A stretch of 64,000 nucleotides of DNA from Okamejei kenojei (Eukaryota), in NCBI GenBank assembly GCA_035221665.1, contig CM069154.1, forward strand, positions 5,146,001 to 5,210,000. The letters run 5' to 3'. A program made the translations under genes and the position numbers. Positions 3,855-63,181 of the stretch are shown piece by piece; within the stretch, counting starts at the first letter, position 1; every line of letters begins with the position of its first letter. A model generated the notes under the pieces. It saw only the letters and a list, made by a program, of their open reading frames with translations. It made no database searches and was not told the origin of the DNA.

Positions 3855-4130
3855 GGGCGGCACAGTGGCGCAGCGGTAGAGTTGCTGCCTTACAGCGCCA
3901 GAGACCCGGGTTTGATCATGACTACCGGTGCTGTCTGTACGGAGTTTGTATGTTCTGCCTGTGACAGCGTCGGTTTTCTCCGGGTGCTCCGGTTTCCTCC
4001 CACAATCCAAAGACGTGTAGCTTTGTGGGTTAATTGGCCTCTGTATAATCGTAAATTGTCCTCCGTGTGTATGATAGTGCGAGTGTACGGGGTGATCATT
4101 GGTCGGCGCGGACTTGGTTGGCTGTAGGGC
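3855..4130 (+). mobile_element. tRNA-derived SINE (V-SINE/HE1-like). Further copies at ~2598-2975, 22397-22705, 24085-24470, 25160-25380, 25600-25790, 26431-26700, 35106-35517, 38468-38765, 40232-40505
   Basis: gggcggcacagtggcgcagcggtagag...gggtt(c/t)gatc with A/B boxes, conserved core gtgggttttctccgggtgctccggtttcctcccaca, (AAACT)n tails in several copies. Confidence 0.8.
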
Positions 4131-7553: not shown

Positions 7554-7722
7554 AATATCCTCATCATCTGTCATTTGTTCTGTAATAATATGCCCCTAGA
7601 TATTTTATCTTATTACAGACACTAAGATTGTTGTCAGACAATTTAAAATCAGGATATTTTAGGCTTTTATCCTCTTTGGTTCTACAGACCATAACAGCAC
7701 TCTTACTAGCATTATATTTAAT

Positions 7723-8064
7723 AGAAAACATAGAAACATAGAAATTAGGTGCAGGAGTAGGCCATTCAGCCCTTCGAGCCTGCACGCCATTCAATATGAT
7801 CATGGCTGATCATCCAACTCAGTATCCCGTACCTGCCTTCTCTCCATACCCTCTGATCCCCTTAGCCACAAGGGCCACATCCAACTCACTCTTAAATATA
7901 GCCAATGAACTGGCCTCAACTACCCTCTGTGGCAGAGAGTTCCAGAGACTCACCACTCTCTGTGTGAAAAAAGTCTTTCTCATCTCGGGCCCCTTATCCT
8001 TAAGCTGTGACCCCTTGTCCTGGACTTCCCCAACATCGGGAACAATCTTCCTGCATCTAGCCTG
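7723..8064 (-). mobile_element. CR1 LINE 3' fragment nested in LINE
   Basis: FFTQRVVSLWNSLPQRVVEA motif and (TTTCTATG)n-type tail. It splits the host reading YGLEHD|IKYNASK. Confidence 0.85.
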
Positions 8065-12261: not shown

Positions 12262-12300
12262 CATATCAGTCATCTCATGAGGATTCTTCGTTCATAAGTT

Positions 12301-12935
12301 ATAGAAACATAGAAAATAGGTGCAGGAGGAGGCCTTTCGGCCCTTTGAGCCAGCATCGCCATTCATTGTGATCAGGGCTGAACGTCCCCAATCAATAACC
12401 TATGCCTGCCTTCTCCCCATATCCCTTGATTCCACTAGCCCCGAGAGCTCCATCTAACTCTCTCTTAAATCCATCCAGTCATTTGGACTCCACTGCCCTC
12501 TGTGGCAGGGAATTCCACAAATTCACAACTCTCTGGGTGAAAAAGTTTTTTCTCACCTCAGTCTTAAATGGCCTCCCCTTTATTCTAAGACTGTGCCCCC
12601 TGGTTCTGGACTCGCCCAACATTGGGAACATTTTTCCTTCATCGAGCTTGTCCAGTCCTTTTATAATTTTATATGTTTCTATAAGATCTCCACTCATCCT
12701 CCTAAACTCCAGTTTAGAGCCTAGTCTTTTCAATCTTTCCTCGTGTGACAGTCCCGCCATCCCATGGATCAATCTCGTGAACCTACGCTGCATTGCCTCA
12801 ATCATAAAGATGTCCTTCCTGAAATTAGGAGTACAAAACTGGACACAATACTCCAGATGTGGTCTTACCAGACCCCTATACAACTGCAGAAGAACCTCTC
12901 CACTCCTGTACTGAAATCCTCTTGCAATGAAGTTC
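12301..12935 (-). mobile_element. CR1 LINE 3' fragment
   Basis: LYRGLVRPHLEYCVQF and RTRGHSLRI...FFTQRVVNLWNSLP. Confidence 0.9.
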
Positions 12936-15466
12936 ATGTGTTAGGGGAGGAATTAGGTCATTTGGCCCATTTTTGTCTACTCCACCATTCAATCATGGCT
13001 GATCTATCTCTCCCTCTCAACCCCATTCTCTTCCCTTCTCCCCATATCGCTTGACACCCATACTAATCGAGAACCTGTGAATCTTAAAAATACCCAGTGA
13101 CTTGGCCCTCATTGGAAACACGGTAAAAGCTTTTCCCTGTACGTGGGAACAAACGACAACAATAAACTGAGCTCATGAATCACCAAAGTTTGTGAGACAC
13201 AAGGAATTGCAGGTGCTGGAATCTTGAGCAAAACACAAAGTGCTGGAGTAACTCAGCAGGTCCGGCAGCATCTGTGGAAGGAATGAACGGACGATGTATA
13301 GGGTTGGGACCTTTCTTCAGATGATGTGTGTGCGTTGGTGTGACAGTGACGGGCAGGGGGAGAGGGTGAGGGGGCGGTTCCACCCCTCCTGCCCCAGTGA
13401 GGGGACGGCAGAGGTTCTGGTCCTGGAGCGATCGTCTTTGGGGAAATGAGCCGCCAGCAGCAGAACCGCCGGTCCCCGTTCACGAGGTCCCCCCCCCCCC
13501 CACACACACACATACACACACACTGCTCCTTGGACAGTGGGCTCATGGACCCCTGTAAATGTGCTCCCCCCCTTCACCCCGACCCCCGGCGATGTGGCAC
13601 CGAGTCACCGTCAGGACCGAGGCCGGGAATTCCCAGGCTGGAATGTTCACATCTGGGAGAGTGAGGAGAGATAGTCAACGTACCTTCAGAAACCTTCAAT
13701 GAGATGGAGGTCCTTTCATTTGCTTGAAAAGATTCCCTTTTTTACTATCACACACCAGTAGCGTCCTTCATCACTCTTCTCCAGGTTGGCGATGGTTACT
13801 GAAAGTATCCGTTGTGTTTTGTTATCAGTCATCGATGTTCTCCCTTGTCGTGGGTCATCAGTAGAAACCACGGTCTTAGATAATGGCCGGTAATAATAAC
13901 CTTTACTCCATAGCTTCCCATACTGTTGTCACTGTATTCCTGACCATACCGACATTCCACAGTGACCGACTGCCCCAACTCTCTCCTCACCTCCTTTGGT
14001 CCAGTTATTCCCCCTGACCCTGTTGGCACATGAATGATGAAAGATCACTCACACTGCAGCAACACAAGCTGAGGTTTAACAATAAAAAACATGTCATTTG
14101 TGCTGTTCAGACAGGTTCATGGTTTTGCATAGATCATGTGTAGCAAGGAACTGCAGGTGCTGGTTTACACCAAAGATTGACACAAAGAGCTGGAGTAACT
14201 CGGCAGGTAGACAAAAATCTGGAGAAACTCAGCTTTGGTGAGGGCGGAAAGCATCTATGTTGACTTTCAGGTCCCCCTTCTCTCCAGAGATGGCAGATCA
14301 GGCAGCATCTCTGGAGTAAAAGGGCAGGTGTCTCTTTTCGCATAGATCCTGACCCTTTGATGTTTTTTCCCGGTTGTTAACCCCTGTCAACATCCCTTTC
14401 CAGTGCAGTTTGGCCCACACTGACCTGTCTGTCCTGGGCCTCCTCCATCCAGAGTGAGGCCACATGCAACGTTGGAGGAACTCGTACCTGCAATTGTCCA
14501 CGCTCAGCAGGTAGTTTTACACTCGTGACAACGGTTTGAAACGTTGAAATTCTCTAATTTTTAACTATCTTTAAACTCTGCAAGTACCTTCCCGTTCTAT
14601 CTTGACCCCCTTTCTTATTCCCACCTTGGGTGAGGGCCAAAGATAGTTTTCCCCCACCTGGTTCTGGAGGTTCTGGTTAGAATTACGATGGGCTCCGGGA
14701 AAATGAGAGCAAATATAAATGCTGAACCGCGGTAACACGGGATATTCCGTATCCAGAGGGCTGAAAGTTGTCTGAGATCCCCCCCTATTTGACTGCAGGA
14801 GTCCTGCGGGACAGTGGGCCCAGTAAAATGAAAAAAAATGAAACTATCACCACCAACCACCAGAACCCCCCCCCCCAGACCCGTCACCCGACCCCCGTGG
14901 GATGTGTGCAACATTCATTCCATCAGGACTGAGGCCGAAATTCCCCCCTGACCCCGAAACAATAATCCAAGTTTCCCAAAACATTGGGAGCGTGAGGAGA
15001 GATCGTCAACGTACCTTCAGAAACCATCCCTTCTCTCCAATGAGATGGAGGTCGATTCATTGTGTGAATGTTACTCCCTTTTGTGTCTATTTTACACACA
15101 CAGTAGAATCGTCCTTCTTTATGTATAGAAACATCTCACTTCTCCAGGTTTTTTTCTGATGGGATTAAAACTAATTAAATGTGGGAACAAACTAATGCTG
15201 GAAATTGTGTTTTGTCTAAATCAGTTATCGATGTTCATTGTCGTGGGTCATCAGTAGAAACCACGGTAGAAGATGACTGGCAAATCATCACCATATGTCC
15301 TACTCCCGCTGTTGTTAATTTGCTCTATATTTTCGAATCATACAGCTGGACATTTCCACAGTGACCGACTGCCCCAACTCTCCCCCCCCCCTCCGGGTTC
15401 CTTACCCCTTGACCCTGTGGGCACATAATTATGAAAGAATCTCACTGCAGCAACACAAGCTGAGTT

Positions 15467-17425
15467 TAAGTAAGTAAGGTAAGTTTGGATTGGCGAAGTA
15501 TTCACATACAAGCAGGGGGAATTTGCCCTTGTGCTCAGCAGTAGGCCCAGGAACCACGCACGTATATATACAACATGACATACATATATATATGTGTGTG
15601 TGTGTCTACAGTTACGATATCACTCAGAAAATATATAAATAAATATATATAATAATAATAATATATTAATGACAAAACACCATTGATTCAAGCATGTGAA
15701 CCAACAAAATATCACATGTCCATCAAAGTGCTACAGATTTTTGGCATGTTGGTAGAGCAACTACTCGTGGATAAAAACAGTTTTTTATGTGGCAGTACTT
15801 TTGACAATGGAGTCGCCATACTGAGAGAAGTGATTCAAAGAGTTTAGAAACATGGCCAGCGTGAGAGGGGTCAGAGGATGATCTTGCCCTGCTCGCTTCC
15901 TGCCCTTGCAGTGTACAGTTCATCAATGGAGGGAAGGTTGCAGCCAATAACCTTCTCAGTATCGGACGATTCGTTGCAGCCTCCAGGTACGTGATCTTGG
16001 TGGCTGAGCCTCTTAAATATAGCCAATGACCAACCTGATGGAGAAGGTGAGAATTCACAGACTCTACGATGGCCGTGTAGGAATTGGACCATATATGCCT
16101 ATTGTGCTTCCTCATGCCGTAGGATACATCCTTGTTTGTGCCATAAATTTGACTGTGGAGTTGATTGCCCCAAGCAAAGGTTGAGAGGTGATTTCCCAGG
16201 AACTTAAACGACTTGCCAAACGTGAAGCTGGGACGTTGCGCCGTGTTTTGATGGTAAGTGAGGTGAGGGGAGAGTCTGCTGTTACAATCTTTCGGATTCT
16301 ATTCTGCACAGAAAAATGTCTTAAATTTGTCTTTGTGCCGCTCTCCTGGGAGCATTGAACACCCTTAGGGCTTCGCGTTTTGCTCCACCAGGATCGCTCG
16401 CTGTGTACGGCCTTCCTCGGCCAACACGGAGGCCTGATTTCTGAAAACAAAGTACAGACCGCATCATCTTCTTCCGCCCACCCGTCCACGGGTTTCAACC
16501 TTAAAACCTTGGGAATATTTAAAGAATATATTAGGGACATTGGATTGTCTGAAGAAGGGTCCCGAGCAGAAACGCAGCCTTGTGGTGTGTGTGTATGTGT
16601 GCGTTGTGCGTGTGTGTGTGTGTGTGTGCTTTCCCAGTGCTGCTTGTGTGTCAGAAGCTGTGTGATCCACCGTGTTCAGGCACAGTCAACTTGGAAAGTT
16701 TGTGTGTGTGTGTGTGTGTAGCTGTGTGGTGTTGTGGTGTATCCTCGCATAGGTCCCCTGGTGGTCTGTGGATGAAGTGCAGGTTTGACTGCATCATCCA
16801 CAGTGTGTATCTGTGTGTGTATGTTGTGTAATAGATCTGTTGTGTGTTGTTTCAACTTGGTGTTTGTCGTGTGTCTTCATGTGTACAGAGGTGTGTGACA
16901 GGCCTGTAGTCATTAAGTAATCCTTGCCTTTTTGTGTGTGTGTGTAGTGGAGACTTGTGGTCAGGCGGCCGCTCAAAGTTTTGCAGTCACCCGACTGGTT
17001 TAAAATGTCTGTGTGCCGGAGACCGGCGGCCAGCTAATTGGCCACAAGCTAAAACCCATAAGAGTCAATGGGGGAAACATTGGCCATCTCTGGAGATTTC
17101 CCTTTTTTGTCCGGGCTGAATACGCCTCTCCTCCTCACTCAAGTATTTGACCCCATTATTGATCCCATTTGATAAGTGATGTTTAAAATTAAAGCACCAA
17201 GAATGCACACCACGTTATTGGTGTACTGGGTGATTTTGGTGTGAAGTAGGTCCAGATAGGAGGGGGGTGCGGCGTAGAAGGAGCCCAGTCCTTTGTGAAC
17301 ATTGTGGGTGTTATTAAGTGACAGTCTTTTCATACGGAGTTGGCCTCAAGTAGGTGTGAAGTGGTGAATGGGAAGGAGAGGAAGTTGGCCGGTCAATGAC
17401 ATACCCGTCTGGCTCGGTTGGTTAC
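15467..17425 (-). mobile_element. Rex1-like LINE, scrambled counterpart of 57334-59143
   Basis: Same position upstream of D1, (ACTT)n tail, recognisable blocks such as EKVIGCNLPSIDELYTARA, but many indels. Confidence 0.7.
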
Positions 17426-17897
17426 ACAATAAAAAACTTGAATTTGTGCTGTACACAGCCACGAGTCTTTCATGGTACCTCGTGGTTTCAAAGATCATCA
17501 CACCGTGCAGGGCATTAGGATTCCCATTTGCACCGGGATTGTTCCCCACACCAGTGAAAGATAGACACTCCCTGAATCTACTGGAGTTCCTCCTTCCCTT
17601 GTGGGCGTGGCTTGACCTGGTGGTGGTCATCTCTGTGAGAAACCAACGGGTTTCAATCACTCTGACAATGTGTTCAATCTCACTACAACCCACATCCCCA
17701 TTGAACTAGTAGAAACAAGGAACTGCAGATGCTGGTTAATACACAAAAGGACACAAAGTGCTGGAATAAATCAACGGGTCAGGAACTATCTCTGGAGAAA
17801 GTGGATAGGTGACAAATCATAGAAACATATAAACATAGAAAATAGGCGCAGGAGTAGGCAATTCGGCCCTTCGAGCCAGCACTGCCATTCAATATGA

Positions 17898-18497
17898 TTT
17901 TCAATCAAAGACTTTATTGTCATTCAAAAATACACCAACAAATGCAAGTTGGAATGAAATTCCGTTGCATCTGGCTCACCGTGTAACATAAAATAACAAA
18001 AGGATAAAATATATAAAAGATAAAATAGATAAAAAGATGAAATAGATAATAGTGGCGGCACATTATATGGAATTCAAGAGTCTGATGGCTCGGGGGGGAA
18101 GAGCTGTTGCAGAACCTGGCCGTTCTGCTCCTTATACTGCGATACCTTTTGCCCGAGGGCAGCAGAGTGAACAGTCCATGATGGAGATGTGTGGGGTCTT
18201 TTATAATGCTGTTGGCCTTGGACAAGCAACGTTTGCGCGCAATGTCCCGGATTGAAGGAAGAGAAGTCCCGATGATTTTTTCAGCCGTCCTCACCACTCT
18301 CTGCACGGACTTCCAGTCGGAGGCTTTGCAGTCCCCAAACCAGACAGATGCAGCTGGTCAAAATGCTCTCTATGGTGCCCCTGTAGAAAGTGGTGAGGAC
18401 GGGATGGGGAGGTGAGCTCTTATCCGGCGCAGAAAGTGCAAACGCTGCTGTGCTCTCTTTATTAGTGATGCGATGTTTTTGTGACAAGGTCAGGCTG
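17898..18497 (-). mobile_element. Rex1/Babar-like LINE 3' fragment inserted in a CR1 tail (paralog ~59552-60153)
   Basis: QRVVRTAEKIIGTSLPSI...LLPSGKRYRSIRSRT. Confidence 0.82.
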
Positions 18498-19119
18498 TTC
18501 ATGGCTGATCATCCAAAATCAGTACCCCTTCTGCTTGCTCCCCCTATCCAATGATTCCATTAGCCCTAAGAGCTATATCTAACTCTCTCTTGAATACATC
18601 CAGTGAATTGGCCTCCACTGCCCTCTGTGGCAAAGAATTCTACAGATTCACACTCTGGGTGAAAAGGTTTTTCCTCATCTGCCTACCCCTTATTCAGGTC
18701 TCAACCCAAAACGTCACCTATCGATGTTCTCCAGAGATGCTGCCTGACCTGCTGCCTTACTCCCAGCACTTTGTGCTTTACTAAAGCTGAATAGCCAGCT
18801 GCCTGTGGTGTCAGTGGGGACTCAGCAGGTCAGGCAGCATCTGTGGACAACATGGATAGGTGACGTTTCAAGTCTAAGACCATGAGATACTGCCTGACCT
18901 ACAGAGTTACGTCAGCACTTTGTGCCCATTGAACTAAACTTCCCGGCCTGTGGTGGAAGCTGGATCTGCCACTGATGTTTCAAACTCCACGTCCACCTGG
19001 AATAATTATGATGTGTCTTTTTCACACAAAGGCTGGTGGGTGTATGGATGAAGCTGCCAGAGGAGGTAATTGAGGCAGGGACTATCCCATCATTTAAGAA
19101 ACAGTTAGACAGGTACATG

Positions 19120-20123
19120 CAGGGCCGGCCTTAGGAGTTGTGGGGCCCAAGTGTAACTATTTTGGTGAGCCCCAGGTTCCCAGTCAAGGTCTAGATTCAT
19201 AGAAATATAATTAAAGTCTATTCTGGACTTTATATCTCTATGGTAGAATGCAAAGTAATCAACATTTGCACTTAAAAAGTGCATGCGACTTAATGGACCA
19301 AACTGATCTAAGCTACTTTTAATATAAAAATTGCATACATGTAAGCCTACAAGTAACAAAACAAAAATGTGTAGATCACCTCTGAAAAGTACATAGTTAC
19401 AATACCACATGTTTTTGTGACTGTGAAATGATTTAAAAAAAAGTAATTTAATTAAATAGATCCTGGAAAACCAATAACCATTGGTGAAAAACCAATCCAG
19501 GCATTAAATTTTGGGCTTCAGCCCCATCCTACCTTTGGACTTCTACCCCATCCTAACTTAGTTGTGTGTGTTAGTTGTCTGTGCGTGATGTGTGTGTGTG
19601 GAGGGAAGGAGAGAAGGTGAGGAAGGAAGGGAGGAAGGGAGATAGGAAGAAGGGAAGGGAGGGAAGAAGGGAAGGAGAGAAGGGAGGGTGAGGGGCCCGT
19701 GGCGGGAGCTGAGGCCGGGTTCCAGCGGGATGGGTGGAGCTGAGGCCGATGTTTGTAAACGTTGCTCCAACCCCCTGCCCGGCCCACCCTGTATTGATCA
19801 CAGTGTCTCCCCGGGGAGAGAGGGGTGGAGCTGGGGCTGTGTGCGTGAAGCACGGTGACTGGAGGGGTGGGAGCGCTGCCGTGAGCGAATGACCCACCTC
19901 CCCCTCTCCCCCTTCACCCCTTTCTCCATTCCCCCTCACACCCCCCTCCCCATCTACCCCTTTCTTCCCCCTCCATCCCTCTACTCTCTCTCCGACCCTC
20001 TCTCCCCTCTCTCCACCCGGGGTAGATCTACCGAGCCGAGAGTAGATTATTCTGGCACGGGGCCCCCTTACTTGCAGGGCCCAATTGGGAGCAATCGGTC
20101 CAAACGGCTTATGGCCGGCTCTG
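19120..20123. mobile_element. Non-autonomous hAT-like DNA transposon (MITE), unit A
   Basis: TIR cagggccggcctta...tatggccggctctg, 8-bp TSD ggtacatg, inserted in a CR1 3' fragment. Confidence 0.82.
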
Positions 20124-23100
20124 GGTACATGGATAGGATAGGTTCATTCATACTAGGAGCAGAATTAGGCCATTTGGCCCATCAAGTCTACTCTCCTCCA
20201 TTCAATCATGGCTGATTTACCTTTCCCTCTCAACTAAATCCTCCTGCCTTCTATCCAAGACTCCTGACACCAGTACTGATCTAGAATCTATCTATCTCTG
20301 CCTTAGAAATATCTATTGACGGCCTCCACAGCCTTCTGTGGCAATGAATTCCACAGTTTCACTACCTTCTGAATAAATAAATTCCTCCTCATCTCCTTCC
20401 TAAATGAACTTTAATTCTTTAATTCTGAAGCTGCGACCTCTGGTCCTAGACTCTCCCACTAGTGGAAACATCCTCCACCATCCACTCTATCCAGGCCTTT
20501 CACTATTTGGTAAGTTTCAGTGAGGTCCACAAGGCAAGGCAAGCTGTAGGTAGTTATCTCCCTCCTCCACAGGGAGCAAGCTGTGTGCAATTTGGCTGCA
20601 CACAACACGACAACAACCGCTGATGGAAGTCTCTACAGGAAGTGTTGAGCAATTCATCATCAGCTCCCCACACAGTACAGAGAGGTCTGTGGTTACAAAT
20701 AATTCAAGGCGCTGGTAAATAATTCTAAAGAACAGAGCATTTTGTAAAACAACGATTTACCTGGTGTGAGACCAACAGCGACAAGAACCAACAGAGCGAC
20801 TGTTCCCCTGGATCTGGGCCGTTTCTGGTGGGTGAATTCTCCCTGTCCCACTGCCATGTCTTGGTTGCGTTGGATCGGTTTGGACCCTGCACTGCGTTTG
20901 AGTTGTCCTCTTCCTCATTCACAACAGAAGTCAAACAGTCAATGTCCGTTTACTCAGGAAACGACTTTGCAGTGGTTCGAGACTAAAGTTGGTGACTCAC
21001 TTGCCACCTCCCCCAGCCTCCTCACCACGGACAATGCACCTATCAGGAGTGAGCTGCAATGCTCTCCTGTTGCCTGGATTGGAGCATCTCCTCGAAGCTC
21101 TGCTTCATTCTGGTGACGTTTGCCCACTTGACTGGCGCTCTGTCCACCACCGCAAACATTCCCTTGCCCACCCCCTCAACCCCCTCCCCAAATGTGGGCA
21201 CACTGTTTCTGAACTTGTATTGGTTTAGGAGGCGGAGATCAGCCATGTTTGAATGGCGGGTAGACTTGATGGGCCGAATGGCCAAATTCTACTCCTGGAA
21301 TGTGTGAGCATTTTCACAGAAAATTGTGAGTCTGTGGAATCCTCTGCCTCAGAGGGCGGTGGAGGCCGGTTGCCTGGATACTTTCAAGAGAGAACTAGAT
21401 AGGGCTCTTAAAGATAGCGGAGTCAGGGGATATGGGGAGAAGGCAGGAACGGGGTACTGATTGTGGATGATCAGCTGGCTCGAAGGGCCAAATAGCCAAT
21501 CCTGCACCTATAGTTTATTGTCTATTGTCTATTGCCACATGCAATCAGATAAGTCCAGTCATGTCACCAGATAAACTCCTTGAAGGACAATTTACATATT
21601 TGAGCATCGGAGACCAGGTAAAGCTTAGTTTGAGGATGTGATTCATAAAATCGTAGAGTGATACAGCACGGAAACAGCTTGCCAATGCCGATGAAGATGC
21701 CCCATGTACGCTAGTCCCTCTTTCGTTTAGTTTAGTTTAGAGATACAATACAGAAACAGGCCCTCTGGCCCACCGTGTCCACACCATCCAGTGATCCCCG
21801 CACAGCAACACAAATGTTTACATTTACACCAACCCAATTAACCTATAAACCTGTACATCTTTGGAGTGTGGGAGGAAACTGAAGTTCTCGGAGAAAACTA
21901 TGTACAGACAAGCACCTGAAGCCGGGATTGAACCCGGGTATCTGCCGCTGTTATGCAATGCAAGGCAGCAACTCTACAGCTGCGCCACCGTAAAAACCAG
22001 GCCTGCATTTGACCCCTGTCCCTACAAACCTTTCCTATCCACGTTCCATGTCCTAATGCTTTTAAATGTTGTTAATAGTACCCGTCCCCACTACCTCCTC
22101 TGGACGTGCTCCTTCCATGTACCCATCAGCTTCTGTGAGATAACATTGTTGAGGTAGGATTAGGGTTGTGTGAGGGAGAAGACAAAGGAGATTGCATATA
22201 CTAGAATCTGGAACAATAGGCAGAACACCTGAAAATCTCAACGGGTCAAGCAGCATCTGTGGAGGCAAAAAGTGCATGTTTGTATTCCGGCCGAGACACT
22301 ACTTCCTGACTGAGGTTGAAAACTGGATGTTTACCAATATATGGCAGAACAAAGAGGAGATGGGTCAAACGCGGGCAAGTGGGACAAGTGGACTAGGGCG
22401 GCACGGTGGCGCAGTGGTAGAGCTGCTGCTTTACAGCGCTTACTGTCGGGTTTGATCCTGACTATGGGTGCTGTCTGTATGGAGTTTGTACGTTTTCCCC
22501 GTGACCGCCTGGGTTTTCTCCAAGATCTTCAGTTTCCTCCCACACTCCAAAAACATATAGGTTAGTTGGTTAGTTGGCTTGGTATAAGTGTAAATAGTCC
22601 CGAGTGCGTGTAGGATAGTGTTAATGCGGTGGGATCACTGTTCGGTGCGAACTCGGTGGGCTGAAGGGCCAGTTTCCACGCTGTATCTCTAAACTAAACT
22701 AAACTAGTTTAGGTTTAAAATAGAAATGCATATGCTGGAAAAATCGATGGTAGACAAAAATGCTGGAGAAACTCAGCGGATGAGGCAGCACCAATGGAGC
22801 GAAGGAATAGGTGATGTTTCGGGTCGAGACCCTTCTTCAGACTGATGTGGAGGTGGGTCTGCGGGGCGGGAAGAAGAAAGGAAGAGGCGGAGACAGTAGG
22901 CTAATTGGCTTCTGTAGGTTAATTGGCTTCTGTAAATTGTACCTAGTGTGCACGATAGAACTAGTGTATGGGTGATTGCTGGTCAGAGCGAACTTAGTGG
23001 GGCAAAGGGCATGTTTCCATGCTGTATCTCTAAACTAAACTAAACATGACAGGAACAAGCCCTCGGGCCCACAATGTCATTGCCGAACGTAATGCCAGGA

Positions 23101-39903: not shown

Positions 39904-40165
39904 TTAAAGGCCCGTTGTCGTGGAGACGGCACTGGGTGGGAGTTGCAGGCGTCGGCCTGGTGTGGCGATGTTGTCGGTGCCTCCACCACCGCCGCTCCGT
40001 GCCGCTGCAGGACATGTCCGATCCGCACGCTCGTCCACGATTTCTGTGGGACCTCCAGCGGCACCCGATCCACCGGCTACTGCAGGGCCTCCAGCAGCCC
40101 ACTCGCGTTCATCTCTTCCCTCCACCACTGCCGACCCCATCTCCAAGGTCTCGGCTGTTTTTTTC
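39904..40165 (-). CDS. Copy B exon 6 (probable): Gly/Ala-rich cytoplasmic tail ending TTGL*
   Basis: Acceptor ttttaattgttattcaag in phase 2 gives TFK-R-KKTAETLEMG... The frame is open in both copies with only a 3-nt indel. AATAAA lies ~200 nt downstream (39697-39702, minus strand). Confidence 0.62.
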
Positions 40166-46100: not shown

Positions 46101-49100
46101 GTTATTGTAGCTCCTGAAACTGTTTGTAAAATAAACCGATCAGATGTGATGGAAAGCCATTCATCATAAAACATTTGTAACCTCCCACCAACTGGAGATT
46201 CGTCCACAGTTTCTTTAAGAACAGAATAAAGTTTTTGTACCTCTCCATATGAACATGGTGGTCTCCTTCTCCCGTATACGGGTGAACATTAGGCTGTGTT
46301 GGATGGTAATATTTTCTTACCATATTCCTGCCTCTGTTTCCAAAATCAAATCCCCTTCTTGACGTAAAATACCTTTTTTGTCCAAAAACGTAGGTCTCAT
46401 GTAGCTAATAGATTTAGCCTCTTCATCCATTCCTCTTATTTGTTTAGGCAGGTTTTCTCCAAATAGATAACCAGGAGCTTGAACACCACTTGATCGACAC
46501 AGACCTGCAAATCTCGGATGAAATATGGGCCGAATCACAATTTTCCTCATGCAATTAATTTGCACAATAAGCCCAATGTATCTCTTTGGATTTTAACCAT
46601 TTCCGACCCTTCCATTTGCTTTCCAAAAGCAGTAATGGCAGCTGAAATCAGTTTGAGGATTCTTTGAAACCTTATTTCTTGTCCTCTCATGACTGATGTC
46701 ATAGGTGTCCATATAGATGGATTAACCGTACGTACCTTCAATGAGGTGCAATTTTCCGGTGTTTTATATAATTCTGCTGTGTCAGCCATCACAGAATCTT
46801 GAAGTTGGTGAGATAGCATATAATTAATACTGGCAGCTAGGTTTTCTTCCATAGTCTCACCACTTCCTTCAGGGAAAAGCAAAATCTCTTGCCATATCAG
46901 GCACATATGGCCTTTTCTTTTTTATTTGTGGTGTGCACTCATAATCCACATCACCACTTTCAGGGTCTGACTTTTGCAGCCCTGATACTCCTGGAACTTC
47001 ATCAAATAAGACTTCCTCCACCCTTAATCCTGGGTCTGGAGTTTCAAATTCCCAATTTGGCACATAGCCATATTCTGGATATTCAAACCCCTCAGGGTCA
47101 GTTTGGGAAAGTTCTGGGTACTTGGACCCTTGTCTCATAATATTTTGGAGTACTCTCTCCATATGTTCCATTTTAAGCCATATAGCTTTATTATCCGGAG
47201 GACTTTCATTATCAGAGTCATCATCAGAAACCACAGGCCTCACAGATTTCTTTTTACTTTTCCCAGGAACATTTTCCTCCGTGGTTTGTGTTTCTGGAGA
47301 AATTATAGTCTCACTACCAGGTGAATCAACGGCCACCGGTATTGGAACCGGCTCCGCACTAATCTCTTGTCCCGACTCTTTAGCTTCTCCCCGGGACGAT
47401 CTTTTAACCCGCGAAATCTTCCTCTGAGACTTCTCCATTTAAAATTTTTTATTACCTAAGCTGGATGAGTACGCCAGCGTGACTCTGATTTTTTGAAATT
47501 TTTACTTTCATTTTTGCTGGTTCTACTTGCCAGCGTAATGTCTTTTTTAGAACGTCCCCTAAAAATTTCATTGCACTTACCTGCGGGTCCGTTCTGACCG
47601 CTGAGAGGAGCTGCACTCTGCAGCTCTTGCTTCTGCCGTCAGCGTCGACGTAATGCCGTTCCAGCGCCAGGCGGGGCTTCTTCACGTAGTCACTCACGTG
47701 ACTCCGAAGTAAAATATCGTGTGGGTCGCCTCCCTTATGCAGTGGAGTAACATTGGTACACTTCCATGCGGAAGGGAGGGTACAAGTTGAGAAGGACAAA
47801 TTAAACAGGTCGCATAGTGGGTACATTAGAATATTAACTCCTAACTTAATGAATTTAGTCTCAATACCAGCTGGTCCAGATCCACAATCATCCTTTAATT
47901 CATTAATAGCATGTTGAACGTCAACAGGTTTTATTTTTTGAAAAGAAAAAGAGCTTCTACACGTAGAGGTAGCTGGAAAGTCACAAGTACTTTGTTGCAA
48001 ACTGTAACCTGGCCATACTATTTTTGTGGCAAACCAGTGGTTTGCATCTTGCAGTGTATCCTCTGTATTTCTGTTCATGAAGTCTTCTGCGGACAGTGGT
48101 TATTGTCAAATCCCCACCTGACTCCTAAAGAGTGTTTCTTATCTGTTGGACAGGGTGTTTGGGTTTTTTTTTTTATTATAGAGAGAAGTCTTCTGTTATC
48201 AGCTTTGGAGGTCTTCCTTGGCTTGCCAGTCCCTTTGCGATTAGTAAGCTCACCAGTGCTCTCTTTCTTCTCAATGATGTTCCAAACAGTTGATTTTGGA
48301 AAGCCTAATGTTTGGATGATGTTTCCAACAGTTTTATTCTTGTTTCTCAGTCTCATAATGGCTTATTTGAGTCATTGGCACAACTTTGGTCCTCATGTTG
48401 ATAAACAGCAATGAAAGTTTCCAAAGGTGATGGAAAGACTGGAGGAAAGATTAGGTGCTGAGAGCTTTTTATACCTGCATTAAAGAGGCAATTAAACACA
48501 CCTGAGCAATTACAAACACCTGTGAAGCCTTGTGTCCCAAAATGTATGGTGCCCTGAAATGGGGGGACTATGTAAAAACACAGATGTAATTTCTACATGG
48601 TGTAACCAAAATGTATAAAAATACCCTTTAATAAAATCTGACAATGTGCACTTTAACCACATGTGATTTTTTCTATTACCAATCTCAAATTGTGGAATAC
48701 AGAGGCAAATAAATAAATTATGGGTCTTTGTCCCAAACATTATGGAGGGCACTGTATGTCCACACTTTATCTCTAAATTCTAAAGTGAACTCCCATCATT
48801 TCCAATTTAATTTAATGTGAACACCAGAGTGAAGAGATTGCACAACTTTTACCTTTTAAAAGTTGTCACACAGCTGATGGAAGCCAGGAAGAGAAGCAGA
48901 ACTCCAAAGAGTACCCAGCGTAACACACCCCAAACACGGCGAACATTCAACACGATGTCCCTGGAAATACAAGGAAATATTATTACTTCCACACAGAGTT
49001 ATCAAAGATCAACGTTGGGGAATTTTTTCATCATATTGCACACGGAATCATTCAGTGTGATCCAAGGTTGTGGCGTAGACATTGGTGAGATGTTTATATC

Positions 49101-52100
49101 GCAACATGCACCCATTCCTTGGAGGTGTTCCATGACTACATACATTAACAACTTAGATGTTCATGTTGGTGGTCAGACATACAGCACGAAAACATGTCCT
49201 TTGACCCAATTTCCGCACGCTGACCAAGATGCCCTTACCTACACTAGTCCCATCTGCCGGCCTTAGATGTTAATGTTGGAAGTATGATTAACGAGTTTAC
49301 AGATTACACCAAAATTGTATCATTTTGGATAGTACAATAATCATAGACCACAGAGGGATGAGAAGCAACTGGTATGTTGGGCAGAGCAATGCCAGCAGGT
49401 ATTGAACCGTGATAAGTGTGAAGTTATTTGTTTTTGGCATCAAATAAGGGTAGACATTCACAACGGTAGGGCCACTGGGTGTACTAAGGACAGAGGGACT
49501 TTAGTCAGGGCCAAGGAGTATTTATCAATGGACTGGAATGTGATCAGCCACGCTTTCTCAAAGTACTGGGACTGATTTTACCGACAATAAGATACGATCC
49601 TACCGGACCACCGGTGCTGTCAGTACATAGTTTGTATGTTCTCCCTGTGATTGCAAGAGTTTACTCTGGATTCTCCAATTTCCTCCCACATTCCAAAGAC
49701 GTGCGGGTTTGTAGTAAATTGCCCCTAGTGTGTAGAACAGAACTGGTGTATGGGGTGATTGCTGCTCAGAGCGGACTCAGTGGGCCAAGGAATCTTTTAA
49801 CTGAGTTGAACTGATCTTAACTAATTTGTTCTCAGTTGAGGCTGTGTTGGCTCTTCGAGTTACCAACCTGTTTGAAAGTATTGAACCAGGAGACTCAGTG
49901 GAACTTGCTGCCTCGGTGGTTGGTGCATCTTGAGGCAGGGTGGTCAGAGCCCTTGTGCTTATTGTTGTAGAGGTGGTGATGACCATATCTGGGCGGTTTG
50001 TTTGAGACCCTTGTGGAGATAAAGTGAATGAAGTTTTTGAACATTAAATGTCTGAAAGCAAGTTCTGTTCCACTTCAGTGATGTGGGGGAGATGCTTCAG
50101 TTGGGAGTGCTCTTGCTCTGTGTGGAGAGATTCCTGGGTTCAAATCCCAAACCAGTGTGGCCCCATGCAGCGGATTCCCCCTACCCCCTTCTCACCTCCC
50201 ACCAAACACCCCCCTCCCTCCCCCATGAACCCCCGGGGATGTGGCACCGAGTCACCGTCAGGACCGAGGCCGAGAATTCCAAGCTGGAATTTCACATGTG
50301 TCGAATATTCGTGGTTTGAATCCCACTCCATACATTTGGACAAAGATCCTTCTGAGGCCACCATAGATGGACCAAGCACCTTGGTCTAGACAGGAGGCTC
50401 ACCCATTTTTAAGATGCCACATGATGGCCGCAAGCATTCAGAGACTTCTTTCATGCCCTTCAGAGTCCCACAGGCTGTGTTATCTGCCTGCTGCTAGAGT
50501 TAGGCACATGTCTTCTACGTTGGAGAAGAACTTGGGAGCGGGAGGATCCATGGACTATTTTCATTACGTGGACTGAATTGGAAATAATGCAATTTGGTTG
50601 GAGGTATCTACCTGAAACATTAACTGTCATTCTCTCTCCACAGATGCTGCCCGACCTGTTGAGTATCTCATCTTGTACAGTTTGTGCGGCTCAGTTTAAA
50701 GTCCATATCAGTCATCTCATAAGGATTCTTCGTTCATAATTTATAGGAACATAGAAAATAGTTGCAGGAAGAGGCCATTCGGCCCTTCGAGCCAGCACCG
50801 CCATTCACTGTGATCTGGGTTGAACATCCACAATCAATAACCCGTGCCTGCCTTCTCCCCATATCCTTTGATTCCACTAACCCCTAGAGCTCTATCTAAC
50901 TCTCTCTTAAATCCATCCAGTGATTTGGCCTCCACTGCCCTCTGTGGCAGGGAATTCCACAAATTCACAACTCTCTGGGTGAAAATGTTTTTTCTCACCA
51001 CAGTCTTTTTTTTGTTTTTTTGTTTTGTTTATTTTATTAGAAGTTAATACAGTAAAAAACAATACAGTGGCACCTAATTTTAGGTGACAACTATGTCATA
51101 ACGTAATACATTCTATGTACAACCTCTAGTTTTATGTTTTTGAAAAGGAAATTAAAAAAAGGCAAGAAATAGAGAGAAGAAAAAGAGGAAAAATAGATAG
51201 TAGAAAATAGAAAAACCTGAAGTGTGCATATAAGAAAAGAAAACATAGAAAGTAGAAATAGGAGAAAAAGAATTTTCAAATCTTTGTTCGGAGATGTAAT
51301 TCTACCCACGACCTGAGCTGAAATCAGTAATCTTAACGGTACTGCTGCATCACATGATTCCAAAAAGTCGATGAAAGGGGACCAACTCCTTAAGAATTGG
51401 TCATATTTATCTATTAGGCGGAGTCTCATTTCTTCAAAGTGAGCTATGTCCGTCATATTACAAATCCACATTTTAATAGTTGGTATAGCTGTATTTTTCC
51501 AAAATTTAAGTATCAATTTCTTTCCAATTATTAACCCATAATTAAAGAATACTTTTTGGTCTTTGTTTAACTTGATATCTTCTACTATTATTCCAAATAT
51601 AATCCATTCCGTATTTGGTTCTATTCTTGACTTGAAGAGCTTTGTAAATATATCAAATATATCGCTCCAAAATTTATTCAACTTTATACATCCTACAAAT
51701 GAATGTGATATATTGGCATTTTGAAACAAACATTTATCGCATCTAGGAGAAACATTTGAGTTGAATTTATTTAACCTCGTTTTTGAATAATATAGTCTAT
51801 GTAATAGTTTAAATTGAATTAGATTATGTCTTGCATTAATGGAACAATTATATGTGTTCATCAGATACTTTTCCCATTTATCTTTCGGAATCTTTATCAT
51901 TAGTTCATGTTCCCAATCTTCTCTTAGTGCCTCTGTTGAGGGTAATTCTCTATTTAATATACTATTATAAAAATAGTTTTTGTGAATTTTATCGGTGAGA
52001 ACAAGATCGTTCCTATATCGTACGGGAAACACTCCCCTTTCTCCATTCTTATCCACTCCGACTGGTGAGTGGAGTTATCCAACCAGTACATTATGTTCTT

Positions 52101-55100: not shown

Positions 55101-58100
55101 CGGTAAAAGCTTTTCCCTGTACGTCGGAACAGACGACAACAATAAACTGAGCTCATGAATCACCAAAGTTTGTGAGACACAAGGAATTGCAGGTGCTGGA
55201 ATCTTGAGCAAAACACAAAGTGCTGGAGTAACTCAGCAGGTCAGGCAGCATCTGTGGAAGGAATGAACGGACGATGTATAGGGTTGGGACCCTTCTTCAG
55301 ATGTTGTGTGTGTGTGGGTGTGACAGTGACGGGCAGGGGGAGAGGGTGAGGGGGCGGTTCCACCCTCCTGCCCCAGTGAGGGGACGGCAGAGGTTCTGGT
55401 CCCGGAGCGATCGTCTTTGGGGAAATGAGCCGCCAGCAGCAGAACCGCCGGTCCCCGTTCACGAGGTCCCCCCCCCCCCCCCCCCCCCCCCAAACACACA
55501 CATACACACACACACTGCTCCTTGGACAGTGGGCTCATGGACCCCAGTAAATGTGCTCTCCCCCTTCACCCCGACCCCCGGCGACGTGGCACCGAATCAC
55601 CGTCAGGACGAGGCAGGGAATTCCCAGGCTGGAATGTTCACATCTGGGAGAGTGAGGAGAGATAGTCAACGTACCTTCAGAAACCTTCAATGAGATGGAG
55701 GTCCTTTCATTGCTTGAAAAGATTCCCTTTTTTACTATCACACACCAGTAGCGTCCTTCATCACTCTTCTCCAGGTTGGCGATGGTTACTGAAAGTATCC
55801 GTTGTGTTTTGTTATCAGTCATCGATGTTCTCCCTTGTCGTGGGTCATCAGTAGAAACCACGGTCTTAGATAACAGGTAATAATCACCTTTACTCCATAG
55901 CTTCCTGTTGTCACTGTATTCCTGACCATACCGACATTCCACAGTGACCGACTGCCCCAACTCTCCCCTCACCTCCTTGGGTCCAGTTATTCCCCTTGAC
56001 CCTGTTGGCACATTAATGATGAAAGATCACTCACACTGCAGCAACACAAGCTGAGGTTTAACAATAAAAAACATGTCATTTGTGCTGTTCAGACAGGTTC
56101 ATGGTTTTGCATAGATCATGTGTAGCAAGGAACTGCAGGTGCTGGTTTACACCAAAGATTGACACAAAGTGCTGGAGTAACTCGGCAGGTAGACAAAAAT
56201 GCTGGAGAAACTCAGCTGGTGAGGGCGGAAGCATCTATGGAGTGAAGGAAATAGGCGACGTTTCGGGTCAAGACCCTTCTTCAGACTGATGGCAGATCAG
56301 GCAGCATCTCTGGAGTAAAAGGGTAGGTGGCCTTTTCGGGTCGGGACCATTCTTGATCTCCTGGTTGCCAACCCTGTCAACATCCCTTCCCATTCCCACA
56401 CTGACCTGTCTGTCCTGGGCCTCCTCCATTGCCAGAGTGAGGCCACATGCAGGTTGGAGGAACCGCACCTCATATTACGCTCAGGTAGTTTACAACCCAA
56501 CGGTTTGAACGTTGAATTCTCTAATTTTAACTATCTTCTACTAACCTGCGCCCTCCCCTTCCCCCTTGACCCCTTTTTCCACCCTGGTGGGTGAGGGGCC
56601 GGTTTTCCCCCACCTGCCCCAGTGAGGGGGCGGCAGAGGTTCTGGTCCCGGAGCGATCGTCTTTGGGGAAATGAGCCTCAGCAGCAGAACCGCCGGTAGC
56701 TGGGACCTTCCGTGGGGCTGGTGTCTGACATCCCCCCCCTATACTGCTCCTGGGACAGTGGGCCCTTCATGTGGCTCCACGGGCCGGGAGCCCAGTAAAT
56801 GATGTATGCACCACCACCACCCCCCCCCCCCCCCCCCCCTGTCCACCTCGACCCCCGGGGATGTGGCACCGAGTCACCATCAGGACTGAGGCCGAAATTC
56901 CCAGGCTGGAATTTTCATATCTGGGAGTGTGAGGAGAGACCGTCAACGTACCTTCAGAAACCATCAATGAGATGGGGGTCAATTCATTGTGTGAATGTTT
57001 TCCCTTTGCTATCACACACCAGTAGTGTCCTTCATCACTCTTCTCCAGGTTGTCGATGGTTACTGAAACGATCTGTTGTGTTTTGTCATCAGTTATCGAT
57101 GTTCTCCCTTGTCGTGGGTCATCAGTAGAAACCACGGTAGAAGATGACTGGTAATCATCACCTTTACTCCACAGCTTGTTGTAATCTCTATATTTCGAAT
57201 CATACTGACATTCCACAGTGACCGACTGCCCCAACTCTCCCCTCACCTCCTCGGGTTCAGTTTCTCCCCTTGACCCTGTGGGCACATTAATGATGAAAGA
57301 TCACTCACACTGCAGCAACACAAGCTGAGGTTTAAGTAAGTAAGTAAGTAAGTAAGTTTATTGGCCAAGTATTCACATACAAGGAATTTGCCTTGGTGCT
57401 CCGCCCACACGTAACAACATGACATACAGTGACAGTTACGAATCACTCAGAAAATACTAAACATTAATAATAATAAAACATTAATGACAAAACACCATTG
57501 ATCAAGCATGTGAACCAACAAAATATCAGATCAAAGGGAGGCTACAGATTTTTGGCTGTTGAGTAGAGCAACTACTCGTGGATAAAAACAGTTTTTATGT
57601 GGCAGCTTTGACAGCCCGGAGTCGCCTTCCAGAGGGAAGTGATTCAAAGAGTTTGTGGCCAGGGTGAGAGGGGTCAGAGATGATCTTGCCTGCTCGCTTC
57701 CTGGCCCTTGCAGTGTACAGTTCATCAATGGAGGGAAGGTTGCAGCCAATAACCTTCTCAGCTGATCGGACGATTCGTTGCAGCCTCCAGGTGTCGTGCT
57801 TGGTGGCTGAGCCAAACCAGACCATGATGGAGAAGGTGAGAACAGACTCTACGATGGCCGTGTAGAATTGGACCATCATTGCCTGTGGCAGATTGTGCTT
57901 CCTCAGCTGCCGTAGGAAGTACATCCTCTGTTGTGCCTTTTTGACTGTGGAGTTGATGGTCGCCCCACACTTAAGGTCCTTGGAGGTGATGGTTCCTAGG
58001 AACTTAAACGACTCCACAGATGTGACTGTGGTGTTGTTGATGGTGAGTGGGGTGAGGGGAGGGGGAGCTCTCCTAAAGTCTACAATCAATTCCACTGTCT

Positions 58101-61100: not shown

Positions 61101-63181
61101 AATTAAATAGATCCTGGAAAACCAATAACATTGGTGAAAAACCAATCCAGGCATTAGATTTTGGGCTTCAGCCCCATCCTACCCTTTGGGCTTCTACCCC
61201 ATCCTAACTTAGTTGTGTGTGTTAGTTGTCTGTGCATGATGTGTGTGTGGGAGGGAAGGAGAGAAGGGAGGGAGAGGGCCCGTGGCGGGAGCTGAGGCCG
61301 GGGTCCGGGCGGATGGGTGTGAGCTGAGGCCGATGTTTGTAAACGTCGCTCCAACCCCCGGCCCGGCCCTCCCTGTATTGTTCACCGCGTCTCCCCGGGG
61401 AGAGAGAGGGGTGGAGCTGGGGCTGTGTGGGAAGCACGGCGACTGGAGGGGCGGGAGCGCTGCCGTGAGCGAACGACCCACCTCTCCCTCTCCCCCTTCT
61501 TCCCCTCCTCCGTTCCCCCTCCCCGTCTACCCCTTTCTTCCCCCTCCACCCCTCTACTCTCTCTCCGCCCCTCTCTCCCCCCCTCCACCCGGGGTACATC
61601 TACCTGAGCCGAGAGTAGATAACTCTGGCGTGGGGCCCCCTTACTCGCGGGGCCCAATTGGGAGCAATCGGTCCAATCGGCTTAAGGCCGGCCCTGGGTA
61701 CATGGATAGGACAGGTTTGTAGGGACATGGACCTAACATGGACAGGTGGGACTAGTGTTGCTGAGACATGTTGGCCGGTGTGGGCAAGTTGGGCTGAAGG
61801 GCCTGTTTCTACACTGTATCACTATGACTCTAACACATGTGAAACTCTGCAGATTCAGGATCTGGGATGGAGACACATGATCAGATCAGTCCAGGTCCGC
61901 TCACAAGCCACAAGACAAATGCCTTGAAGGAGAACTCAGAGGCTGGGGAAAGCACAGTGTGGAGAACAGCTCGAGCAGCAGAGTCTGTAAAGCAGCTGTT
62001 TTTTTCTCAGGAGAGATTACCTCAACTTCTCCAAATGCTAAATTGGACAGTCACTCTGGTGCTTCCTCATTTGAGATGCCCACCTGTTCCCAATGGCTGG
62101 CTCTCACAGGTTTTTTCTTTGAATGTGCTAAGATTTAGATTCAACATTTCCCATTGCAGTGCGTGGAGGGAGTGCCGTGTGTCTTTGATGGACACTAAAT
62201 GCTGGAGTAACTCAGCGGGTCAGGCGGCATCTCTGGAGAGAAGCAATGGGTGATGTTTCAGGTCGAGACCCTTCTTCAGACCAACAGTCAGCGAGGGAGG
62301 AAGTCAAGAGATATGCAAGTGGTAAAGCATTTAGCTGATCTGCTGTCAAGTCACTGAGAAAGTTCACCTGGAGATAGTTTGCACCAGAATAGTGGAGCAA
62401 ACTCTCTGGTCCAGGGCAAGAGTTACCCCAACACCCAAGATCAACAAGGCCAGCTGTCGGATCATTTTCTACAGGGAGTTAGCTGTGTGCAATTTGGCTG
62501 CGCACAGCATCACAACAGTCATTAGTGCAGGAAAGAACAAGTCTGCAAGCACTTTATCTTTAGCAGCTCGTAGCCCAGTAGTCTGCTCTGTGGCTCAAAA
62601 TAATTCAAGGTGTTAGTAAATAATTCTGAAGAACAGATCATAAGTTAATTAGTACTAGGAGCAGAATTAGGCCATTTGGCCCATCAAGTCTACTCTCCAC
62701 CATTCAATCATGGCTGATCTATCTTTCTGTCTTCTCCCAGGACTCCTAACACCAGTACTGATCAAGAATCGATCTATCTCGGCCTTAGAAATATCTATAG
62801 ACAGCCTCCACAGCCTTCTGTAGCAATGAATTCCACAGATTCACCACCTAACTAAAGAAATTCCTCCCCATCTCCTTCCTAAAGGAACGTTCTTTAATTC
62901 TGAGGCTGTGACCTCTGATCCTAGACTCTCCGCAAGTGGAAACATCCTCCACCATCCACTCTATCCAGGCCTTTCACTATTTGGTAAGTTTCAGTGAGGT
63001 CCACAAGGCAAGGCAAGCTGCAGATATTCAAGGCAATGGTATATAATTCTAAAGGACAGAGCATTTTGTAAAACAACGATTTACCTGATGTGAGACCAAC
63101 AGCGACAAGAACCAACAGAGCGACTGTTCCCCTGGATCTGGGCCGTTTCTGGTGGGTGAATTCTCCCTGTCCCACCGCCAT
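39904..63181 (-). CDS. CD300/CMRF35/pIgR-like type I membrane receptor, copy B, 6 exons, 419 aa, apparently intact
   Basis: Exons 63085-63181, 56952-57275, 55675-56001, 49868-50009, 48853-48960 and 39904-40165 all have GT/AG boundaries with compatible intron phases (1,1,1,2,2). Lengths 97+324+327+142+108+262=1260 nt, with no internal stop. Confidence 0.85.
41387..47984 (-). mobile_element. 5'-truncated L2/CR1-group LINE inserted in Tc1 and itself split by DIRS
   Basis: PLHKGGDPHDI|NNYRPIS, FLDLTKAFD, YADDT, KYLGVWLD. aagt duplicated at the junctions. Confidence 0.85.
42780..47716 (-). mobile_element. Full-length DIRS1-like tyrosine-recombinase retrotransposon (frameshifted)
   Basis: Gag-like 46317-47438; RT/RNase H 44828-46207 (LPNGLSSAPRLFTK, YLDD, INYLELL); methyltransferase-like 44315-44770 (DLFASRLN, YAFPPF); YR 43420-44318 (AQRVQTL, HSTRAAATS). 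36-bp inverted repeats 42853-42888 and 47653-47688; ICR 43008-43120. Confidence 0.95.
48853..48960 (-). CDS. Copy B exon 5: transmembrane segment with an intramembrane Arg
   Basis: RDIVLNVRRVWGVLRWVLFGVLLLFLASISCVTTFK. Acceptor atttccag, donor AG|gtaaaa, 108 nt, phase 2-2. Too short to appear in the ORF track. Confidence 0.85.
49868..50009 (-). CDS. Copy B exon 4: Ser/Thr/Pro-rich mucin-like stalk
   Basis: GSQTNRPDMVITTSTTISTRALTTLPQDAPTTEAASSTESPGSILSN. Acceptor tttatctccacaag, donor AG|gttggt (gttagt in copy A), phase 1-2. Confidence 0.82.
51008..54539 (-). mobile_element. L1-like LINE (most of ORF2), unit-B specific, inserted in a CR1 fragment
   Basis: NIYAPN, GGDFNC, SRIDYF, SDHSP, KTPGPDGF, DAEKAFD, RQGCALSP, CDKC. 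TSD cagtctt. The host CR1 is uninterrupted in unit A (~12559). Confidence 0.92.
54540..54915 (-). mobile_element. CR1 fragment (continues 50745-51007 across the L1)
   Basis: LVGPHLECCVQFWSP...RTRGHSLRIKG. Confidence 0.88.
55675..56001 (-). CDS. Copy B exon 3: V-set Ig domain D2
   Basis: ITGPKEVRGELGQSVTVECRY...KLWSKG...RTSMTDNKTQRILSVTIANLEKSDEGRYWC, a typical CD300/pIgR-like V domain. 327 nt, phase 1-1. Confidence 0.93.
56250..56288 (-). ncRNA. Minimal hammerhead ribozyme motif in the D1-D2 intron, sense to the gene
   Basis: Minus strand reads AGU-CUGAAGA-A-GGGUC-UU-GACCC-GAAACGUC^GCC. Core intact, stem I weak. Confidence 0.5.
56952..57275 (-). CDS. Copy B exon 2: V-set Ig domain D1
   Basis: GQSVTVECQY...KLWSKG...SVTIDNLEKSDEGHYWC: B-strand Cys, C-strand Trp and DxGxYWC motif. 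Acceptor cccacag, donor G|gtacgt, 324 nt, phase 1-1. Confidence 0.93.
57334..59143 (-). mobile_element. Rex1/Babar-like LINE, 5' truncated, in intron 1
   Basis: [39 protein letters not shown], (ACTT)n tail. It splits the intron motif gaggttt|aacaataaaaaacatg, which is contiguous upstream of D2. Confidence 0.9.
60775..61696. mobile_element. Non-autonomous hAT-like DNA transposon (MITE), unit B
   Basis: TIR caggaccggcctta...taaggccggccctg, 8-bp TSD ggtacatg (60767-60774, 61697-61704). Confidence 0.85.
63085..63181 (-). CDS. Copy B exon 1: signal peptide MAVGQGEFTHQKRPRSRGTVALLVLVAVGLTS
   Basis: ATG in gacATGg context, basic n-region plus hydrophobic core, donor CAG|gtaaat in phase 1 matching the Ig exon. 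Confidence 0.85.

Follow-up and report, generated by a model that had tools for sequence, protein, structure and literature searches.

Likely diversifying selection and loop shuffling in a CD300/pIgR-like skate receptor family lacking the C–C′ disulfide

The window, the whole 64,000-nucleotide stretch of Okamejei kenojei DNA analysed here, harbors an intact CD300/pIgR-like skate surface receptor gene (gene A) carrying two V-set immunoglobulin exons, D1 and D2. The surplus of residue changes in the BC, CC′ and FG loops of these domains is probably the outcome of long-running diversifying selection on the predicted ligand face of a multigene family whose exons probably swap segments. The evidence from the D1/D2 pair is positive but thin, and the variation found in other skate genera extends it.

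Results

Structure and identity of gene A

Gene A lies on the minus strand and consists of six exons (signal, D1, D2, stalk, membrane and tail) with an open frame of 419 codons and canonical splice sites; the model was built by mapping skate homologue proteins back onto the window with tblastn. Exon 1 (63085..63181, minus strand) contains the start codon and a predicted signal peptide, matches the N-termini of skate homologues at 88–97% identity by tblastn, and ends in frame at a GT donor. The D1 exon (56952..57275, minus strand, 324 nt) and the D2 exon (55675..56001, minus strand, 327 nt) each encode one V-set domain; both are in phase 1 with AG/GT ends, and the coordinates are exact outer exon bounds. 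The Ser/Thr-rich stalk exon (49868..50009, minus strand) was placed by tblastn and is in frame with AG/GT ends. It is followed by a transmembrane exon of the RW type, whose hydrophobic stretch has an Arg at its outer end (48853..48960, minus strand), and by the predicted last coding exon, a cytoplasmic tail that ends at a stop (39904..40165, minus strand). This last exon was found by tblastn with homologues P0003 and P0007 over its first 28 residues, and the tail beyond them is predicted from the open frame alone.

The D1 and D2 exons score 56.2 and 50.6 bits against the Pfam V-set profile PF07686 (cut-off 26). The V-set hallmarks C22, W35 and C86 are present, and the AlphaFold2 model of D1 (pLDDT 90.8) shows the A′–G strand order. 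In a Foldseek search with this model, ranks 1–9 are CD300lf and rank 10 is CD300a, with TM scores of 0.85–0.87 and 36–37% identity. By sequence, the best PDB matches are pIgR, with domain 5 at the top, the high pIgR scores being totals across all five of its domains. A search among longer proteins returned seven matches among 116 candidates, all from skates, labelled pIgR-like or CMRF35-like and 69–77% identical. A profile search gave 26 matches, adding rays, sharks and bony vertebrates, and a search at single-domain length gave no match among two candidates.

Among the tails of eight skate homologues, three are ITIM-like, and four of the eight proteins have an RW-type membrane segment. Gene A has no tyrosine after the stalk, tail included, and the window contains a membrane exon of the RW type only. 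The membrane Arg and the tyrosine-free tail suggest that gene A is an activating-type member of a paired leukocyte receptor set. A membrane-segment Arg of this type would be expected to recruit FcR-gamma-type adaptors. Three homologue models (P0001, P0011 and P0033) contain both membrane-exon types, or are two receptors fused; such layouts would fit either neighboring genes of activating and inhibitory type or alternative membrane exons.

No neighboring gene was seen in the 8 of 15 frames of at least 200 amino acids that were scanned, six of which are retroelement domains and two unmatched. Broken retroelement frames with reverse transcriptase or endonuclease domains fill introns at 50900–54500, 57600–58900, 45000–45780, 36500–37530, 41750–42550 and 7820–8650, and a high-copy short repeat lies in the intron at about 56100–56500. 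The intron just 3′ of the Ig exons resembles 50048–50390, upstream of the stalk exon, when translations are compared by eye; this likeness may mark the remnant of a lost domain unit.

Divergence between D1 and D2

The two exons lie in duplicated units that include intron flanks. The unit around D1 spans 56606..57333 (minus strand), as defined by alignment with the D2 unit, and the unit around D2 spans 55366..56059 (minus strand), 1277 nt from the first. An intron block of about 80 nt 3′ of each Ig exon (55366–55463 and 56606–56700) is 97% identical between the units, as against 89% for exon-proximal DNA, and is either a constrained element or a conversion tract.

The codon alignment contains 40 nucleotide differences in 321 sites, with an extra codon in D2. 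The counts given in the original prediction were borne out: 27 codons are nonsynonymous, four synonymous (TAT/TAC, GAT/GAC, CTG/CTA and ATC/ATA) and one an indel, and the predicted protein identity of about 74% comes to 80 of 107 residues (74.8%).

Tests of selection on the pair

By counting, dN is 0.158 and dS 0.070, a ratio of 2.3 without transition bias (Fisher p=0.057) and of 2.6 at a kappa of 2 (p=0.026). Maximum likelihood under the GY94 model with three frequency models places omega at 3.07–3.29 (likelihood ratio test, p 0.014–0.025). Neutral simulations with CpG hypermutability yield 10.3–10.7 synonymous differences expected among the 40, as against five observed by pathway counting, and five or fewer arise with a probability of 0.007–0.025 (3000 runs each). 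CpG hypermutability was rejected as the cause of the synonymous deficit, which persists in simulations that include it. Only five synonymous differences carry the pairwise test, and they show no significant clustering near nonsynonymous ones (p 0.17).

The duplicated intron flanks, proposed with the original prediction as a neutral control, diverge at 14 of 234 ungapped sites, and dS is 5/83; both are 6.0%. Nonsynonymous sites (35/238) exceed the flanks (p=0.0014), but do not significantly exceed the nearest 3′ flank alone (11/97, p=0.27). The three flank blocks are uneven, with 1/58, 11/97 and 2/79 ungapped sites differing (p=0.014), and the first of them includes splice signals.

Multiple hits occur in 8 of the 31 changed codons, and adjacent difference pairs number 12 where five are expected. 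Multinucleotide events inflate selection tests of this kind, according to the portion of 10.1101/165969 available. With the multinucleotide share set to 4%, as in non-coding paralogous DNA, omega is 2.8 (p=0.04); with the rate fitted freely, it is 2.3–2.4 and the excess over 1 is no longer significant (p 0.11–0.14). In single-hit codons alone the excess is likewise not significant (p 0.20–0.35). A two-class site test (2ΔL 16–17) was set aside, its p-value being 0.016–0.054 once multinucleotide terms were added.

The p-values under a free multinucleotide rate, together with the adjacent pairs, would suit a rather unlikely alternative, in which constraint was relaxed and conversion was active: the loops would be neutral, framework and flank differences would have been erased, and multinucleotide events would have inflated omega, all in the absence of positive selection. 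This reading also draws on the uneven flanks, on two exon runs of 45 and 44 nt that are identical between D1 and D2 (permutation p=0.03), and on variants in public contigs. The contigs, from four sequencing runs, gave at least 24 exonic variant rows, these being 24 of the 40 rows listed, with 169 further rows beyond the listing; five of the 24 are synonymous, close to the neutral 23–28%; three of these five are D2 letters on D1 and so are not independent. No contig among those listed spans the stretch. Against relaxed constraint, the freely fitted multinucleotide delta (0.08–0.13) is four to six times the value of about 0.02 calibrated on the non-coding DNA of the window, and conversion would erase synonymous and nonsynonymous differences alike, so that on its own it should not push omega above 1. 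Diversifying selection on the pair is, on these sequence comparisons, likely but not proven.

Loops and variation across the family

Loop boundaries were taken from the AlphaFold2 model of D1 (BC 24–31, CC′ 38–44 and FG 90–96). Changed residues are enriched in these loops (11 of 22, as against 16 of 85 elsewhere; Fisher p=0.004), which agrees with the predicted clustering in the B-C, C-C′ and F-G loops, although under half of all changes (11/27) fall there. A contrast with widened loops (17/31 versus 10/76) is given no weight, the wider boundaries having been drawn with the data in view. The fits yielded no class with omega below 1, and outside the loops omega is estimated at 2.05, not significantly above 1, so the signal is not restricted to the loops. 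The original proposal of positive selection on ligand-facing loops holds in part: the pairwise omega and the pooled flank contrast point to it, and the fits with a free multinucleotide rate and the nearest-flank comparison leave it borderline.

The pair was placed among 18 other domains from seven proteins of three other skate genera. Entropy in these 18 domains is 1.32 at the columns that differ between D1 and D2 and 0.39 elsewhere (p=1.5e-8); by element it is 1.43 in FG, 1.25 in CC′, 1.10 in DE and 0.86 in BC. Across all 20 domains, 10 different residues occur at column 42 and eight at each of columns 43 and 96, and 40 of 108 columns are invariant. The number of columns with at least eight residues, three, compares with a neutral expectation of 0.01 (point estimate) to 1.1 (upper bound); the scaling of neutral tree length is rough, rests on the D1/D2 pair and is indicative only. 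Eight to ten residues per column within so shallow a family count against relaxed constraint. A precedent for binding by such loops exists in mouse CD300lf, in which the CC′ and CDR3 (FG) loops form a phosphocholine pocket and the norovirus site (PMC6166816, in the part available). By analogy, the skate loops could bind as those of CD300lf do.

Ancestry of D1 and D2

The original prediction placed the divergence after the D1/D2 duplication. This is not supported: D2 is nearer to its three closest domains, from Leucoraja and Amblyraja (82–85%), than to D1 (75%). At 17 of the 28 differing columns both states are present in other skate genera; seven columns are private to D1, three to D2 and one to both, and two of the states private to D1 sit at columns that do not vary among the 18 other domains. 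Because so many columns are shared and D2 is closer to other genera, the pair appears to sample an old, shuffled family pool. The order of duplications is left unclaimed, as only 1 of 17 inner branches in the 20-domain tree has strong support.

Among D1, D2 and 10 Leucoraja and Amblyraja domains, of which 10 of the 12 could be classed, each of two BC motifs is found with each of two FG motifs. Short windows give a significant PHI-like test (p 0.004–0.047), but a 20-column window does not, nor is the test significant within Rhinoraja. Gene conversion between the paired CD300A and CD300C ectodomains is described for primates in the accessible part of PMC12447643. The skate loop combinations fit patchwork conversion among exons, and recurrent mutation could also produce them.

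D1 groups, with weak support, with mostly N-terminal domains, and its end branch in the 20-domain tree is 0.30, as against 0.06 for D2 and a median of 0.16. This long branch and its seven private states, as against three in D2, lend something to a second alternative, in which D1 alone changed function or lost constraint and D2 keeps a basic GFCC′ face and does the binding. The acidity of D1, taken up in the next section, points the same way. We regard this reading as quite improbable, since D1 retains its core residues, frame, splice sites and confident model (pLDDT 91), and its FG and N-terminal motifs are common to the first domains of Amblyraja and Leucoraja proteins. A shift specific to D1 can nevertheless coexist with family-wide diversifying selection.

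Charge difference

The predicted net charges, −8 for D1 and +4 for D2 (K+R−D−E), were reproduced, and the corresponding pI values are 4.8 and 9.2. The charge gap itself is real and larger than the simulations yield (P about 0.005–0.01), but a charge reversal on the loops is not supported: the changes sum to −2 inside the loops and +13 outside them, sums that leave out the extra Lys of D2. A gap of at least 11 arises in 0.4–1.0% of simulations, 14 of 17 charge changes run in one direction (p=0.013), and among 190 domain pairs (mean gap 3.4) none exceeds the 12 units of this pair; the pair was chosen for its charge gap, making these p-values post hoc. D1 is the most acidic of the 20 domains, the other 19 ranging from −5 to +4. 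At 12 putatively outward-facing GFCC′ positions, placed by strand alternation and chosen after the differences had been seen, charges sum to 0 in D1, +5 in D2 and −1 to +4 in the others. The charge changes include five putative outward positions on this sheet, which is basic in most family members, most strongly in D2, and neutral in D1. These values support a gap that stems mostly from D1 having turned acidic, its lineage losing basic and gaining acidic surface residues outside the loops.

The size and direction of the gap would also suit charge complementarity, with acidic D1 binding basic D2, either within one ectodomain, which would fold back on itself, or between receptors in a head-to-tail arrangement. 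We consider this very improbable: acidic and basic domains follow no constant order in five multi-domain skate proteins, CpG-type transitions account for 4 of the 17 charge changes and another change creates the D2 glycosylation sequon, and the p-values carry the post hoc limit given above. That single N-glycosylation sequon lies in D2 codons 63–65 (window 55812–55804) and is absent from D1; 12 of the 18 other skate domains have Asn at this place. The charge gap may shift ligand preference, and it is not the main signal.

Gene B and the tandem duplication

Window positions 1–21300 and 28000–63600 form a tandem segmental duplication of the whole gene. The paralogue, gene B, spans 3788..20857 on the minus strand, counted from the signal exon to where the tail exon begins, and lies about 36–42 kb from gene A. 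Its copy of D1 (15015..15414, minus strand) is very noisy, with many small indels, and its copy of D2 (13684..14019, minus strand) differs from that of gene A by five substitutions, one 3-nt insertion and two frameshifting insertions. Both the D2 exon and the stalk exon have lost the reading frame, and gene B is either a pseudogene or poorly polished sequence; its pseudogene status is uncertain because window 14200–17200, with dense small indels and GT/AT repeat runs relative to the paralogue, looks typical of unpolished consensus.

Non-coding DNA differs between genes A and B at 278 of 6508 sites, a mean of 4.3% that varies from 0.7 to 7.8% by block, and this spread suggests patchwork conversion between the two genes. 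Kappa in the same DNA is 2.3, and the CpG transition rate is near seven times background. Between the two genes the D2 exons show just five substitutions in 327 nt, which, set beside the mean non-coding divergence, indicates no acceleration since that duplication.

The gene B copy of D1 has the D1 letter at 36 of the 40 differing sites and its copy of D2 has the D2 letter at 39 of 40, so the D1/D2 differences are real and predate the A/B duplication. The proposal that consensus errors of a poorly polished long-read assembly made the differences, prompted by the visible noise at about 14200–17200 and the several gene B frameshifts, is largely refuted by this repetition, by the open 419-codon frame of gene A and by the 17 of 28 columns whose states recur in other skates.

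Absence of the C–C′ disulfide

A second disulfide, linking strands C and C′, and a YWCR motif define CD300 domains, according to the available part of PMC3031540. In mouse CD300lf this disulfide, Cys36–Cys44, floors the pocket and Asp98 binds the metal, as given in the accessible text of PMC6166816. D1 and D2 have Ser at both C–C′ cysteine places. A census of domains with aligned C22 and W35, drawn from 490 aligned pieces, found both cysteines in none of the 18 other skate domains (17 of which have neither), and hence in none of the 20 skate domains overall. Both are present in all 15 stingray and mobulid domains, in 2 of 4 named shark domains, in 13 of 14 other named domains and in 243 of 255 unnamed representative domains. 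They are paired in none of 18 Narcine rows, which are isoforms rather than independent cases and keep one Cys, and in neither of two Pristis domains; a Scyliorhinus domain has neither cysteine. This patchy spread suggests more than one loss of the disulfide among elasmobranchs (skates, sawfish, electric ray and a catshark domain). The column that seems to correspond to the metal-binding Asp98 holds Asn in D1, D2 and 11 of the 18 skate domains, and Asp in 62 of 105 non-batoid domains. Loss of the disulfide could have freed the CC′ loop to vary.

Discussion

Mechanism and significance

Under long-running diversifying selection, exon duplication would multiply binding domains and gene conversion would shuffle loop variants among the exons of the family. 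The loops, by analogy with CC′ and CDR3 of CD300lf, might recognize ligands of microbial or altered-self origin; turnover would then be driven by pathogens exploiting or evading the loop site, and selection would favor new loop residues. A bolder proposal, offered as an unlikely extension, is that skates made the CD300 lipid pocket into an open, unbraced three-loop surface and maintain it as a germline repertoire through duplication of exons and shuffling of loops. Multi-domain paired innate receptors would result, with a separate specificity for every domain, and a receptor with an acidic D1 and a basic D2 would be bispecific.

Rapid loop evolution is expected in paired Ig-type receptors, so on its own the selection signal adds only modestly to what is known. 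The results also mark a skate family without the second disulfide usual in CD300, pIgR and TREM, in which the loop that this disulfide would brace ranks with the most variable segments. Should the ligand have moved from lipid head groups to variable microbial surfaces, a conserved sensor fold for apoptotic cells would have become a diversified pathogen sensor in a cartilaginous fish. Residues 42, 43, 45, 83, 96 and 99 (alignment numbering) are candidates for loop-swap experiments.

Comparison with known systems

The closest relatives are the pIgR-like or CMRF35-like RefSeq models of Amblyraja radiata (XP_032898103-105) and Leucoraja erinacea (XP_055510911/916/917) and those of Rhinoraja longicauda. 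They share with gene A 67–85% identity per domain, the exon layout, the stalk, the RW-type membrane segment and the missing C–C′ pair. The homologues carry one to four V domains and gene A two, and its D1 is the most acidic of the set; their names are automatic labels, and the proteins are unstudied. A literature survey that covered few subscription papers found no study addressing selection on these skate genes or the loss of their disulfide.

The nearest described family, by description only, is that of the MDIRs of clearnose skate. The original MDIR paper is reportedly by Cannon in 2006. As described in the part of PMC3031540 available, MDIRs are multigene activating and inhibitory receptors of skate and zebrafish that resemble CD300, TREM and pIgR. 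Among the named matches of the homologue searches, in which the profile search scored 7998 candidates, none is named MDIR.

Relative to pIgR and teleost PIGRL, the likeness lies in the best PDB sequence matches and in the multigene nature of PIGRL. According to the accessible text of PMC9321927, the pIgR-like genes of zebrafish form a multigene family found in both lymphoid and myeloid cells, and teleost pIgR is single-copy with dad1 and lrrc24 as neighbors. The available part of PMC4279169 contains nothing on pIgR of cartilaginous fish. In contrast to pIgR, the skate form is multicopy and rapidly varying, and has no tail tyrosine and no C–C′ disulfide; the two tandem gene copies in the window argue against the single-copy status that is a feature of pIgR.

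The mammalian CD300 proteins (CD300lf, CD300a and CD300c) have the closest fold among solved structures, and like gene A they are type I membrane proteins with a stalk. Both the skate family and CD300 include forms with and without ITIM-like tails, and conversion among ectodomains is described for CD300 (PMC12447643, in part). The differences are two V domains in gene A rather than one, no YWCR motif, no second disulfide, and Asn in place of the presumed metal-binding Asp. Gene A is accordingly filed as CD300/pIgR-like only: it lacks two defining CD300 features, and nothing links it to Ig transport. The mode of evolution proposed here is already known; what is under-described is a skate variant of a known receptor family that is loop-shuffled and has lost the C–C′ disulfide.
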